Source: Escherichia coli
Lineage (GTDB): Bacteria; Pseudomonadota; Gammaproteobacteria; Enterobacterales; Enterobacteriaceae
DNA length: 64,000 nucleotides
Reading direction: 5' to 3' (one strand)
Assembly: GCF_003790525.1 (NCBI RefSeq)
Contig: NZ_CP033636.1
Shown here one piece after another: positions 15,631 through 56,366 of this stretch. A program made the position numbers and the translations under genes. The notes under the pieces are model-generated. The model saw only the letters and a list, made by a program, of their open reading frames with translations, ran no database searches and was not told the DNA's origin. Position 1 is the stretch's first letter, and the number at the start of each line of letters is the position of its first letter.

Positions 15631-16450
15631 GGCACTGTTGCAAATAGTCGGTGGTGATAAACTTATCATCCCCTTTTGCTGATGGAGCTGCACATGAACC
15701 CATTCAAAGGCCGGCATTTTCAGCGTGACATCATTCTGTGGGCCGTACGCTGGTACTGCAAATACGGCATCAGTTACCGTGAGCTGCAGGAGATGCTGGC
15801 TGAACGCGGAGTGAATGTCGATCACTCCACGATTTACCGCTGGGTTCAGCGTTATGCGCCTGAAATGGAAAAACGGCTGCGCTGGTACTGGCGTAACCCT
15901 TCCGATCTTTGCCCGTGGCACATGGATGAAACCTACGTGAAGGTCAATGGCCGCTGGGCGTATCTGTACCGGGCCGTCGACAGCCGGGGCCGCACTGTCG
16001 ATTTTTATCTCTCCTCCCGTCGTAACAGCAAAGCTGCATACCGGTTTCTGGGTAAAATCCTCAACAACGTGAAGAAGTGGCAGATCCCACGATTCATCAA
16101 CACGGATAAAGCGCCCGCCTATGGTCGCGCGCTTGCTCTGCTCAAACGCGAAGGCCGGTGCCCGTCTGACGTTGAACACCGACAGATTAAGTACCGGAAC
16201 AACGTGATTGAATGCGATCATGGCAAACTGAAACGGATAATCAACGCCACGCTGGGATTTAAATCCATGAAGACGGCTTACGCCACCATCAAAGGTATTG
16301 AGGTGATGCGTGCACTACGCAAAGGCCAGGCCTCAGCATTTTATTATGGTGATCCCCTGGGCGAAATGCGCCTGGTAAGCAGAGTTTTTGAAATGTAAGG
16401 CCTTTGAATAAGACAAAAGGCTGCCTCATCGCTAACTTTGCAACAGTGCC
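15631..16450 (+). mobile_element. IS26 copy 4 (820 bp), G184N variant type, flanked by 8-bp direct repeat CTTCTGGT
   Basis: Exact IS26 IRs; 15623-15630 and 16451-16458 both CTTCTGGT (target site duplication of a simple insertion). Confidence 0.95.
15694..16398 (+). CDS. tnpA: IS26 transposase, G184N variant
   Basis: ...[15 protein letters not shown]... Confidence 0.9.
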   Translation: MNPFKGRHFQRDIILWAVRWYCKYGISYRELQEMLAERGVNVDHSTIYRWVQRYAPEMEKRLRWYWRNPSDLCPWHMDETYVKVNGRWAYLYRAVDSRGRTVDFYLSSRRNSKAAYRFLGKILNNVKKWQIPRFINTDKAPAYGRALALLKREGRCPSDVEHRQIKYRNNVIECDHGKLKRIINATLGFKSMKTAYATIKGIEVMRALRKGQASAFYYGDPLGEMRLVSRVFEM

Positions 16451-42847: not shown

Positions 42848-43667
42848 GGCACTGTTGCAAATAGTCGGTGGTGATAAACTTATCATCCCCTTTTGCTGAT
42901 GGAGCTGCACATGAACCCATTCAAAGGCCGGCATTTTCAGCGTGACATCATTCTGTGGGCCGTACGCTGGTACTGCAAATACGGCATCAGTTACCGTGAG
43001 CTGCAGGAGATGCTGGCTGAACGCGGAGTGAATGTCGATCACTCCACGATTTACCGCTGGGTTCAGCGTTATGCGCCTGAAATGGAAAAACGGCTGCGCT
43101 GGTACTGGCGTAACCCTTCCGATCTTTGCCCGTGGCACATGGATGAAACCTACGTGAAGGTCAATGGCCGCTGGGCGTATCTGTACCGGGCCGTCGACAG
43201 CCGGGGCCGCACTGTCGATTTTTATCTCTCCTCCCGTCGTAACAGCAAAGCTGCATACCGGTTTCTGGGTAAAATCCTCAACAACGTGAAGAAGTGGCAG
43301 ATCCCGCGATTCATCAACACGGATAAAGCGCCCGCCTATGGTCGCGCGCTTGCTCTGCTCAAACGCGAAGGCCGGTGCCCGTCTGACGTTGAACACCGAC
43401 AGATTAAGTACCGGAACAACATGATTGAATGCGATCATGGCAAACTGAAACGGATAATCGGCGCCACGCTGGGATTTAAATCCATGAAGACGGCTTACGC
43501 CACCATCAAAGGTATTGAGGTGATGCGTGCACTACGCAAAGGCCAGGCCTCAGCATTTTATTATGGTGATCCCCTGGGCGAAATGCGCCTGGTAAGCAGA
43601 GTTTTTGAAATGTAAGGCCTTTGAATAAGACAAAAGGCTGCCTCATCGCTAACTTTGCAACAGTGCC
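42848..43667 (+). mobile_element. IS26 copy 5 (820 bp), V171M transposase variant
   Basis: Exact IS26 IRs; flanks tgagaacg / cactagtg. Confidence 0.95.
42911..43615 (+). CDS. tnpA: IS26 transposase, V171M ([10 protein letters not shown]), G184 form
   Basis: Single substitution relative to copies 1, 2, 6. Confidence 0.9.
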
Positions 43668-44673
43668 CACTAGTGAGGGGCGGCAGCGCATCAAGCGGTG
43701 AGCGCACTCCGGCACCGCCAACTTTCAGCACATGCGTGTAAATCATCGTCGTAGAGACGTCGGAATGGCCGAGCAGATCCTGCACGGTTCGAATGTCGTA
43801 ACCGCTGCGGAGCAAGGCCGTCGCGAACGAGTGGCGGAGGGTGTGCGGTGTGGCGGGCTTCGTGATGCCTGCTTGTTCTACGGCACGTTTGAAGGCGCGC
43901 TGAAAGGTCTGGTCATACATGTGATGGCGACGCACGACACCGCTCCGTGGATCGGTCGAATGCGTGTGCTGCGCAAAAACCCAGAACCACGGCCAGGAAT
44001 GCCCGGCGCGCGGATACTTCCGCTCAAGGGCGTCGGGAAGCGCAACGCCGCTGCGGCCCTCGGCCTGGTCCTTCAGCCACCATGCCCGTGCACGCGACAG
44101 CTGCTCGCGCAGGCTGGGTGCCAAGCTCTCGGGTAACATCAAGGCCCGATCCTTGGAGCCCTTGCCCTCCCGCACGATGATCGTGCCGTGATCGAAATCC
44201 AGATCCTTGACCCGCAGTTGCAAACCCTCACTGATCCGCATGCCCGTTCCATACAGAAGCTGGGCGAACAAACGATGCTCGCCTTCCAGAAAACCGAGGA
44301 TGCGAACCACTTCATCCGGGGTCAGCACCACCGGCAAGCGCCGCGACGGCCGAGGTCTTCCGATCTCCTGAAGCCAGGGCAGATCCGTGCACAGCACCTT
44401 GCCGTAGAAGAACAGCAAGGCCGCCAATGCCTGACGATGCGTGGAGACCGAAACCTTGCGCTCGTTCGCCAGCCAGGACAGAAATGCCTCGACTTCGCTG
44501 CTGCCCAAGGTTGCCGGGTGACGCACACCGTGGAAACGGATGAAGGCACGAACCCAGTGGACATAAGCCTGTTCGGTTCGTAAGCTGTAATGCAAGTAGC
44601 GTATGCGCTCACGCAACTGGTCCAGAACCTTGACCGAACGCAGCGGTGGTAACGGCGCAGTGGCGGTTTTCAT
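43668..44673 (-). CDS. intI1: class 1 integron integrase IntI1 (last ~2 codons replaced by IS26 junction)
   Basis: [19 protein letters not shown]...[20 protein letters not shown] then reads into IS26. Confidence 0.9.
44558..44586 (+). promoter_or_regulatory. Pc cassette promoter, PcW configuration
   Basis: TGGACA-17 bp-TAAGCT within intI1 coding region. Confidence 0.6.
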
Positions 44674-47142: not shown

Positions 47143-47943
47143 ATGAAAACATTTGCCGCATATGTAATTATCGCGTGTCTTTCGAGTACGGCATTAGCTG
47201 GTTCAATTACAGAAAATACGTCTTGGAACAAAGAGTTCTCTGCCGAAGCCGTCAATGGTGTCTTCGTGCTTTGTAAAAGTAGCAGTAAATCCTGCGCTAC
47301 CAATGACTTAGCTCGTGCATCAAAGGAATATCTTCCAGCATCAACATTTAAGATCCCCAACGCAATTATCGGCCTAGAAACTGGTGTCATAAAGAATGAG
47401 CATCAGGTTTTCAAATGGGACGGAAAGCCAAGAGCCATGAAGCAATGGGAAAGAGACTTGACCTTAAGAGGGGCAATACAAGTTTCAGCTGTTCCCGTAT
47501 TTCAACAAATCGCCAGAGAAGTTGGCGAAGTAAGAATGCAGAAATACCTTAAAAAATTTTCCTATGGCAACCAGAATATCAGTGGTGGCATTGACAAATT
47601 CTGGTTGGAAGGCCAGCTTAGAATTTCCGCAGTTAATCAAGTGGAGTTTCTAGAGTCTCTATATTTAAATAAATTGTCAGCATCTAAAGAAAACCAGCTA
47701 ATAGTAAAAGAGGCTTTGGTAACGGAGGCGGCACCTGAATATCTAGTGCATTCAAAAACTGGTTTTTCTGGTGTGGGAACTGAGTCAAATCCTGGTGTCG
47801 CATGGTGGGTTGGGTGGGTTGAGAAGGAGACAGAGGTTTACTTTTTCGCCTTTAACATGGATATAGACAACGAAAGTAAGTTGCCGCTAAGAAAATCCAT
47901 TCCCACCAAAATCATGGAAAGTGAGGGCATCATTGGTGGCTAA
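47143..47943 (+). CDS. blaOXA-10: class D beta-lactamase OXA-10 type
   Basis: 266-aa [81 protein letters not shown]... Confidence 0.9.
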
Positions 47944-47959
47944 AACAAAGTTAAACATC

Positions 47960-48751
47960 ATGAGGGAAGTGGTGATCGCCGAAGTATCGACTCAACTATC
48001 AGAGGTAGTTGGCGTCATCGAGCGCCATCTCGAACCGACGTTGCTGGCCGTACATTTGTACGGCTCCGCAGTGGATGGCGGCCTGAAGCCACACAGTGAT
48101 ATTGATTTGCTGGTTACGGTGACCGTAAGGCTTGATGAAACAACGCGGCGAGCTTTGATCAACGACCTTTTGGAAACTTCGGCTTCCCCTGGAGAGAGCG
48201 AGATTCTCCGCGCTGTAGAAGTCACCATTGTTGTGCACGACGACATCATTCCGTGGCGTTATCCAGCTAAGCGCGAACTGCAATTTGGAGAATGGCAGCG
48301 CAATGACATTCTTGCAGGTATCTTCGAGCCAGCCACGATCGACATTGATCTGGCTATCTTGCTGACAAAAGCAAGAGAACATAGCGTTGCCTTGGTAGGT
48401 CCAGCGGCGGAGGAACTCTTTGATCCGGTTCCTGAACAGGATCTATTTGAGGCGCTAAATGAAACCTTAACGCTATGGAACTCGCCGCCCGACTGGGCTG
48501 GCGATGAGCGAAATGTAGTGCTTACGTTGTCCCGCATTTGGTACAGCGCAGTAACCGGCAAAATCGCGCCGAAGGATGTCGCTGCCGACTGGGCAATGGA
48601 GCGCCTGCCGGCCCAGTATCAGCCCGTCATACTTGAAGCTAGACAGGCTTATCTTGGACAAGAAGAAGATCGCTTGGCCTCGCGCGCAGATCAGTTGGAA
48701 GAATTTGTTCACTACGTGAAAGGCGAGATCACCAAGGTAGTCGGCAAATAA
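47960..48751 (+). CDS. aadA1: aminoglycoside (3'') adenylyltransferase AadA1 type
   Basis: MREVVIAEVSTQLSEVVGVIERHLEPTLLAVHLYGSAVDGGLKPHSDIDLLVTVTVRLDE...EFVHYVKGEITKVVGK. Confidence 0.9.
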   Translation: MREVVIAEVSTQLSEVVGVIERHLEPTLLAVHLYGSAVDGGLKPHSDIDLLVTVTVRLDETTRRALINDLLETSASPGESEILRAVEVTIVVHDDIIPWRYPAKRELQFGEWQRNDILAGIFEPATIDIDLAILLTKAREHSVALVGPAAEELFDPVPEQDLFEALNETLTLWNSPPDWAGDERNVVLTLSRIWYSAVTGKIAPKDVAADWAMERLPAQYQPVILEARQAYLGQEEDRLASRADQLEEFVHYVKGEITKVVGK

Positions 48752-48816: not shown

Positions 48817-49299
48817 ATGAGAACCTTGAAAGTATCATTGATGGCTGCGAAAGCGAAAAACGGCGTGATTGGTTGCGGTCCAGACATACCCTGGTCCGCG
48901 AAAGGGGAGCAGCTACTTTTTAAAGCATTGACCTACAATCAGTGGCTTCTGGTGGGTCGCAAGACGTTTGAATCTATGGGCGCACTCCCCAATAGGAAAT
49001 ACGCGGTCGTTACCCGCTCAGGTTGGACATCAAATGATGACAATGTAGTTGTATTTCAGTCAATCGAAGAGGCCATGGACAGGCTAGCTGAATTCACCGG
49101 TCACGTTATAGTGTCTGGTGGCGGAGAAATTTACCGAGAAACATTACCCATGGCCTCTACGCTCCACTTATCGACGATCGACATCGAGCCAGAGGGGGAT
49201 GTTTTCTTCCCGAGTATTCCAAATACCTTCGAAGTTGTTTTTGAGCAACACTTTACTTCAAACATTAACTATTGCTATCAAATTTGGAAAAAGGGTTAA
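48817..49299 (+). CDS. dfrA14: trimethoprim-resistant dihydrofolate reductase DfrA14
   Basis: [80 protein letters not shown]... Confidence 0.9.
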
Positions 49300-49482
49300 C
49301 AAAGCTATGCAATCGACGGCAAAAAGCTTCGTTCGCTTCGCGCACTACGCCTTTTCCGCGATTGATAGCGACGTTATGTGAATATTGAAATGAGCATTCC
49401 AAAGAAAGGAAGTAGAAAAATTATCGTGGGCGAAAATGAGTTTTTGTGGCTCATTAGGTCAAAACTCACATATTCGCAGGAC

Positions 49483-50721
<1,239 letters not shown>

Positions 50722-55547: not shown

Positions 55548-56366
55548 GGCACTGTTGCAAATAACCACGAATGGTAAGCTGAAGACTGTTTTAGCTAAAG
55601 GTGCAGCATATGAATCCTTTCCATGGTCGGCATTTTCAGGGCGAAATCATTCTTTGGGCTGTGCGCTGGTATTGTAAATATGGCATTAGCTATCGTGAAC
55701 TGCAGGAAATGCTGGCCGAACGGGGTGTGAATGTTGATCACACGACTATTTACCGTTGGGTTCAACGTTATGCTCCTGAAATAGAAAAACGTTTACGCTG
55801 GTATTGGCGTAATCCTACAGATCTGAGCTCGTGGCATATTGATGAAACCTATGTAAAAGTGAATGGACGATGGTCTTATCTGTATCGTGCAGTCGATCAA
55901 CGTGGCGATACCATTGATTTTTATCTTTCTTCTAGACGTAATACCAAATCAGCATATTGTTTTCTTGGAAAAATTTTAAATAATGTGAAGAAGTGGCAAA
56001 TTCCACAAGTGATCAACACGGATAAAGCACCCACATATGGACGTGCTTTATCACGGTTAAAACGGGAAGGTAAATGTCCACCAGACCTTGAGCACAGGCA
56101 GATTAAGTATAAAAATAACGTGATTGAATGTGATCATGGCAAGCTAAAGCGGATCATCAGGGCCACATTAGGATTCAAATCTATGAAGACGGCTTATGCC
56201 ACAATTAAAGGTATTGAAGTCATGCGTGCACTACGTAAAGGACAAGCATCGTCATTTTATTATGGTCAGCCTCAGGGTGAAGTGTGTCTAATCAACAGGG
56301 TTTTCGGTCTCTAAGTACTTTTTAAAGGGAACATCATCGACTCAAATCTCTATTTGCAACAGTGCC
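55548..56366 (+). mobile_element. IS6-family element, IS1006/IS1008-like (819 bp), sharing the IS26 14-bp terminal repeat
   Basis: Ends GGCACTGTTGCAAATAACC... / ...TTTGCAACAGTGCC; internal sequence and transposase clearly diverged from IS26. Confidence 0.8.
55610..56314 (+). CDS. tnpA: IS1006-like transposase (IS6 family)
   Basis: [105 protein letters not shown]... Confidence 0.85.
   Translation: MNPFHGRHFQGEIILWAVRWYCKYGISYRELQEMLAERGVNVDHTTIYRWVQRYAPEIEKRLRWYWRNPTDLSSWHIDETYVKVNGRWSYLYRAVDQRGDTIDFYLSSRRNTKSAYCFLGKILNNVKKWQIPQVINTDKAPTYGRALSRLKREGKCPPDLEHRQIKYKNNVIECDHGKLKRIIRATLGFKSMKTAYATIKGIEVMRALRKGQASSFYYGQPQGEVCLINRVFGL

Follow-up and report, generated by a model that had tools for sequence, protein, structure and literature searches.

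What lies between dfrA14 and the IS26 copy that follows it? We analyzed a stretch of 64,000 nucleotides of Escherichia coli contig NZ_CP033636.1 (assembly GCF_003790525.1), referred to here as the window. Downstream of dfrA14, a short open frame runs into IS26. An earlier note had proposed that an ATG at 49390 opens this frame, that no 3'-conserved segment (3'-CS) follows dfrA14, and that the frame might be the start of a further cassette or of a backbone gene. The first two points were borne out: the frame can be read from this ATG into IS26 at 49483, qacEdelta1 and sul1 are absent, and a blaTEM fragment lies beyond IS26. Whether the frame, called the stub below, is a cassette, a backbone gene, a chance frame or an expressed peptide is addressed in the following sections. 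The features concerned are listed in Table 1.

Table 1. Features of the dfrA14-IS26 region and of the opposite end of the integron unit (window positions)
Feature	Position	Strand	Remarks
IS26 at the opposite end of the integron unit	42848..43667	+	removes the last two intI1 codons
dfrA14 CDS	48817..49299	+	100% identical to annotated dfrA14
attC of the dfrA14 cassette	49294..49379	+	bottom-strand fold; endpoints of other dfrA cassettes
Second gene cassette, 5' 109 bp	49374..49482	+	16-nt leader and codons 1-31
Truncated ORF	49390..49482	+	N-terminal 31 codons of a 104-aa protein of a ~105-aa family
IS26 truncating the cassette	49483..50302	+	820 bp; terminal repeat GGCACTGTTGCAAA starts at 49483
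Read-through of the stub frame into the IS26 left end	49483..49509	+	GTVANSRW, stop at 49507-49509

The truncated frame and its protein family

From the ATG at 49390-49392 to position 49482, the frame holds 31 sense codons (MSIPKKGSRKIIVGENEFLWLIRSKLTYSQD, MSIPKK...TYSQD). An upstream GTG at 49378 is an alternative start in the program-made ORF list and gives a 43-aa ORF. Translation from the ATG through the IS26 end would give a 39-aa hybrid peptide, consisting of the 31 residues and eight further codons. This hybrid ORF is already present in protein databases (entry P0007).

A profile (A3) was built from full-length relatives only, and sequences derived from In191, the integron lineage treated below, were left out. 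The 31-aa peptide matched it over residues 1-31 with 53.5 bits (E 1e-18). The peptide conforms to the family signature M-x-I-P-K-K-G-S-R-x-I-x-V-x(4)-Y/F-x-W-x-I-R-x-K-P-T-Y-x-Q. It keeps the invariant Trp20 and the near-invariant Gly7, Arg9, and Arg23, and it has Leu at position 26, where the consensus is Pro. An exhaustive HMMER search with an N-terminal profile returned 229 cluster representatives, nearly all of them 100-125 aa long and matched at their own residues 1-50. A full-length profile added 384 further clusters from Streptomyces, other Actinobacteria, Cyanobacteria, and Proteobacteria, all labelled hypothetical. Neither the fragment nor full-length relatives could be assigned to a family by Pfam, NCBIfam, and PADLOC scans, and the 101 aligned members had no consistent match in Pfam. 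The family profile matched no PDB sequence (best E 0.21), and a convincing relative by structure did not emerge. A word-indexed protein search with the 48-aa In191 peptide returned only fragment copies and one marine variant.

The structure of a relative (P0009) was modeled. The predicted fold has five strands and two helices, with strands 3-5 and the long helix located past residue 35. The intact 104-aa product is a small, soluble protein of the alpha/beta type, and its basic N-terminus is conserved. The stub covers 31 of its 104 residues (the N-terminal 30%); it spans two strands and a short helix in the model and does not make up the full-length fold. The gene neighborhoods of distant relatives, including those in Streptomyces and Acaryochloris and a locus adjacent to an AAA_15/DUF4276 pair, had no common partner gene. 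In the Acaryochloris copies (L022-L026), a family gene of ~106 aa is preceded, at a distance of 4 bp, by a 73-aa ORF and followed by a Uma2-family endonuclease gene. These three genes may form a small operon, which could hint at function.

Could the 39-aa hybrid peptide be expressed, with a retained or new activity that explains its persistence? Its start codon is intact, and it forms the end of a cassette array that is transcribed; both points also speak against inertness of the stub. The exact stub::IS26 junction was found in at least 387 plasmids, 100% identical. However, hitch-hiking with dfrA14 and IS26 accounts for this conservation; the junction is as identical as the DNA around it and so shows no trace of selection acting on the peptide. 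The peptide holds only the two strands and the short helix, and the In191 form, which ends differently (48 aa), is equally common. We consider an active hybrid peptide very unlikely. Because about 70% of the protein is missing, and with it most of the predicted sheet and the main helix, no functional product is expected. The stub is almost certainly non-functional.

The possibility of a chance open frame in a non-coding flank of the dfrA14 attC was also considered. The frame has only 31 codons, no clear Shine-Dalgarno sequence and AT-rich surroundings, and it is unannotated in most database records. The profile score stands against this, because it was obtained with independent full-length relatives, as do the 229 family representatives and the intact 104-aa parent described below. 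Comparison of 42 codons with a marine homologue gave 14 synonymous differences, 13 amino-acid changes, and 15 identical codons. The share of synonymous differences suggests that the sequence evolved as a protein. A chance frame is therefore extremely improbable.

The dfrA14 attC and the start of a second cassette

The dfrA14 ORF starts with the ATG at 48817 (48826 under the AMRFinder definition) and ends with TAA at 49297-49299. The stop codon lies within the inverse core GGTTAAC of the attC, whose core site reads GTTATGT. As expected of an attC, the bottom strand forms an imperfect hairpin (-19.9 kcal/mol, z -3.4). The crossover falls between G49373 and T49374 (G/TTRRRY type). Positions 49300-49373 are thus dfrA14 attC and lie outside the cassette of the stub. 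The earlier note had named non-coding attC-flanking sequence as the result that would speak against it; this holds for 49300-49373 and fails for 49374-49482, the start of another cassette.

If the stub were the second ORF of a two-ORF dfrA14 cassette, the two would be expected to travel together, and the stub accompanies dfrA14 in ~1400-1500 of ~1750-2040 matching plasmids. However, a complete attC separates them. For many dfrA14 cassettes in other arrays, and also for dfrA5 and dfrA30 cassettes, the match to the window ends at 49376-49379. In pMS2H5VEB-1, the stub stands behind aadB without dfrA14, and there the aadB attC leads into an identical TTATGTG (TTATGTGAATATTGAAATGAGC). The upstream partner is exchangeable at this base, since the aadB attC is joined there, as integrase-mediated recombination predicts. 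A two-ORF cassette has next to no probability.

Relatives of the cassette were compared at their 5' ends. A marine-metagenome homologue with 69% amino-acid identity aligned at the DNA level from GTTATGTG onwards, and its upstream sequence was unrelated. In five full-length environmental relatives and the truncated marine copy, a GTTATGTG-like core precedes the ATG by 16-25 nt. The distance from crossover to ATG is 16 nt in the window, In191, the parent contig (L029) and relatives L003, L006, and L015. Where the ORF is complete (five relatives), its stop codon is located within an ...ATAAC inverse core or shortly before it, and an attC follows. One of the relatives belongs to an array with five or more attC sites. 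The stub itself has a 5' boundary at an attC crossover and a single promoterless ORF near that boundary, two of the marks of a cassette. Its own 3' attC, present in the relatives, is missing in the window, where IS26 abuts codon 31. Sequence comparison thus assigns 49374-49482 to a cassette other than that of dfrA14.

The marine homologue (TARA contig L003, 245-806) stops after 59 codons. Downstream, the contig is very AT-rich and carries an unrelated 172-aa ORF without an attC. Either a degenerate cassette or a chimera of the assembly could explain this.

Metagenome contigs were scanned for an In191-specific continuation of the frame, with one base required to differ from In191 just past the suspected breakpoint. 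The scan found a complete parent cassette in contig VFQT010104480.1 (L029). It was identical to 49374-49482 of the window at 107 of 109 positions, the differences being at 49399 and 49466, and to the In191 stub at 144 of 146 positions. Identity with In191 ended sharply after ...GTTGAACCGG (GAACCGG). The parent protein has 104 aa and scored 127 bits against the family profile. The cassette lies between two attC sites of one ~130-nt type. The contig is only 1015 bp long and cuts the downstream attC, of which the inverse core and the left half are visible; the length of the complete cassette, ~450 bp, is an estimate for this reason. Of this length, 146 bp are kept in In191 and 109 bp in the window. 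A second metagenome match (L030) was rejected as an intact cassette, being an In191-derived fragment in a different context. The exact parent sequence was not found in the GTDB genomes scanned.

These comparisons also bear on the backbone-gene alternative of the earlier note, in which IS26 would have cut into the beginning of a gene of the plasmid backbone or of a transposon, with no relation to the integron. The missing 3'-conserved segment fits this alternative, and so does the In191 sequence, which enters a mobilization gene fragment. However, similarity to the homologues starts at the attC core, and the closest relatives and the parent are attC-flanked cassettes. The upstream cassette is dfrA14 or aadB, with the identical joining base. 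The mobilization gene fragment in In191 corresponds to the last ~76 residues of the ~193-aa MobC (the 3' 40% of the gene); it is in another frame than the stub and is itself 5'-truncated. We regard a backbone gene as excluded for practical purposes. The further-cassette proposal was upheld by the attC boundary, the exchangeable aadB partner, and the intact metagenome parent.

In191 descent and the IS26-bounded unit

The 193 bp from 49290 to 49482 are present in 1756 plasmid records, and 49294-49482 of the window is identical to the In191 reference (L002). In the In191 references (pHCM1 and Klebsiella IncF plasmids), the stub frame runs for 48 codons and is followed by the mobC fragment and IS6100. 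In191 is described in the literature as intI1-dfrA14-mobC-IS6100 with the 3'-conserved segment replaced. We found no description of the partial cassette, in In191 or in the IS26-bounded array, in the searchable part of the literature.

In191 (pHCM1 and many Klebsiella IncF and IncN plasmids) and the window are identical from dfrA14 through stub codon 31, and both are without a 3'-conserved segment. They differ on both sides of this segment. In191 has a 146-bp stub, truncated mobC and IS6100, whereas in the window IS26 cuts the stub at 109 bp and the rest of In191 (the remaining stub, mobC and IS6100) is absent. The window has arr-2, cmlA5, blaOXA-10, and aadA1 in addition, ahead of dfrA14. As truncated mobC and IS6100 are absent, the window carries an In191 derivative, not In191 itself. 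Truncation by IS26, as the earlier note had it, is correct for the junction at 49483, but it was not the first cut: the cassette had already been reduced to 146 bp in In191 by mobC-IS6100.

Other arrays carry the same 3' end. In pMS2H5VEB-1 (NZ_LC542924.1, 2930-3560), cmlA5-blaVEB-1-aadB is followed by the same 146-bp stub, truncated mobC and IS6100, which indicates that stub-mobC-IS6100 serves as the 3' end for more than one cassette array. In Klebsiella plasmid OW967891.1 (600-2560), a group II intron with an LtrA-like ORF lies between arr-2 and the distal part of the dfrA14 attC; dfrA14 is missing, and the stub, truncated mobC, and IS6100 are kept.

The IS26 at 49483-50302 is flanked by CGCAGGAC on the left and CTTTTTTG on the right, without an 8-bp target duplication. 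The missing duplication points to IS26-mediated deletion, cointegration, or recombination and not to a clean insertion. Its right end is directly abutted by a blaTEM 3' fragment (50303-50721, the C-terminal ~140 aa). At the other end of the unit, the intI1 frame (43561-44673, minus strand) encodes 335 IntI1 residues and then runs into IS26 42848-43667.

Some plasmids with the stub::IS26 junction have only intI1-dfrA14 ahead of it. The whole unit from IS26 (42848) through intI1-arr-2-cmlA5-blaOXA-10-aadA1-dfrA14-stub to IS26 (50302) was 100% identical in at least 167 plasmids. According to PMC10026359, IS26-intI1-arr-2-cmlA5-blaOXA-10-aadA1-dfrA14-IS26 is a common module of Klebsiella, E. coli, and Salmonella plasmids. 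That unit has the same structure as the one in the window and does not differ from it in sequence. It is given there as ending in dfrA14-IS26, and we found no mention there of a 109-bp partial cassette in between.

Further observations concern neighboring parts of the resistance region. The IS26 copy at 55548-56366 has 819 bp, compared with 820 bp in the seven other complete copies of the window, and it is out of register when aligned to the reference copy. PMC10026359 mentions an IS26 of this resistance region that has lost one base. Among the IS26 copies of the window, only that at 15631-16450 retains an intact 8-bp target duplication (CTTCTGGT), a sign of simple insertion; the flanks of the other copies are unlike each other. 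At 47921-47960, the aadA1 cassette start (GTTAAACATCATGAGGGAAG) almost directly follows the blaOXA-10 stop codon, without a full attC between them. The blaOXA-10 and aadA1 genes behave as a fused cassette.

Taken together, 49374-49482 is very probably the inert leftover of a promoterless cassette formerly located 3' of the dfrA14 cassette, of which only the first 109 bp survive here. It could have arisen as follows. IntI1 would have captured the cassette behind dfrA14. Later, mobC-IS6100 would have replaced the 3' part of the cassette and the DNA downstream, presumably the 3'-conserved segment, in line with the literature on In191. IS26 would then have entered, and an IS26-mediated deletion or recombination would have removed the remaining In191 end. 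The arr-2-cmlA5-blaOXA-10-aadA1 cassettes may have reached their place before dfrA14 either through insertion at attI1 or through recombination of two integrons. The IS26 truncation probably preceded the gain of these four upstream cassettes, or was recombined with it; this order is based solely on the existence of intI1-dfrA14-stub::IS26 plasmids.

Source of the cassette and meaning of the remnant

A 20-mer from the parent attC was searched in species-representative genomes. It occurred at 40 loci, all of them bona fide attC sites. Arrays of 3-10 parent-type attC sites with cassette-like spacing were found only in Cellvibrio, Cellvibrionaceae, and related gammaproteobacterial genomes; other genera had single copies. 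In three of these genomes (two of Cellvibrionaceae and one of Cellvibrio), the array locus also encodes an integron integrase with 43-46% identity to IntI1. No family member is encoded at any of the Cellvibrio attC loci that were retrieved. The distribution of the arrays suggests that the cassette came from a Cellvibrionaceae chromosomal integron.

In Zoogloea sp. 1C4 (contig positions 8517-10800), an integrase 93-98% identical to IntI1 is split into two pieces, perhaps by a frameshift, and lies ~1.2 kb from a cassette with a Cellvibrio-type attC. This may be an environmental class 1 integron sampling the Cellvibrio-type cassette pool.

The parent and its relatives share their layout with the gcu cassettes (cassettes of unknown function) of chromosomal integron arrays: a single small promoterless ORF that begins 16 nt past the crossover, a stop codon in the inverse core, and a 3' attC. 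The window cassette differs from these in lacking its 3' three-quarters, its own attC included. Since this attC is missing, the cassette can no longer be excised or moved by an integrase. Tentatively, the stub could be the fossil of an environmental cassette whose product family has no described domain, and the 3' end of In191 could come from chromosomal integrons of the Cellvibrionaceae group. We give this wider reading slightly less than an even chance.

The stub belongs to structures that have already been described, and it is in itself ordinary and of low interest. Its sole practical role is that of a sequence tag for the In191 descent of this dfrA14. The 109-bp tag and the exact IS26 junction help to trace dfrA14 into the five-cassette, IS26-bounded unit of E. 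coli, Klebsiella, and Salmonella. For annotators, the recurrent "hypothetical protein" calls at this position represent a truncated cassette and not a gene. The intact relatives define an unnamed family of ~105-aa proteins, and the parent cassette suggests that integrons of the Cellvibrionaceae type are one source of cassettes for clinical class 1 integrons.
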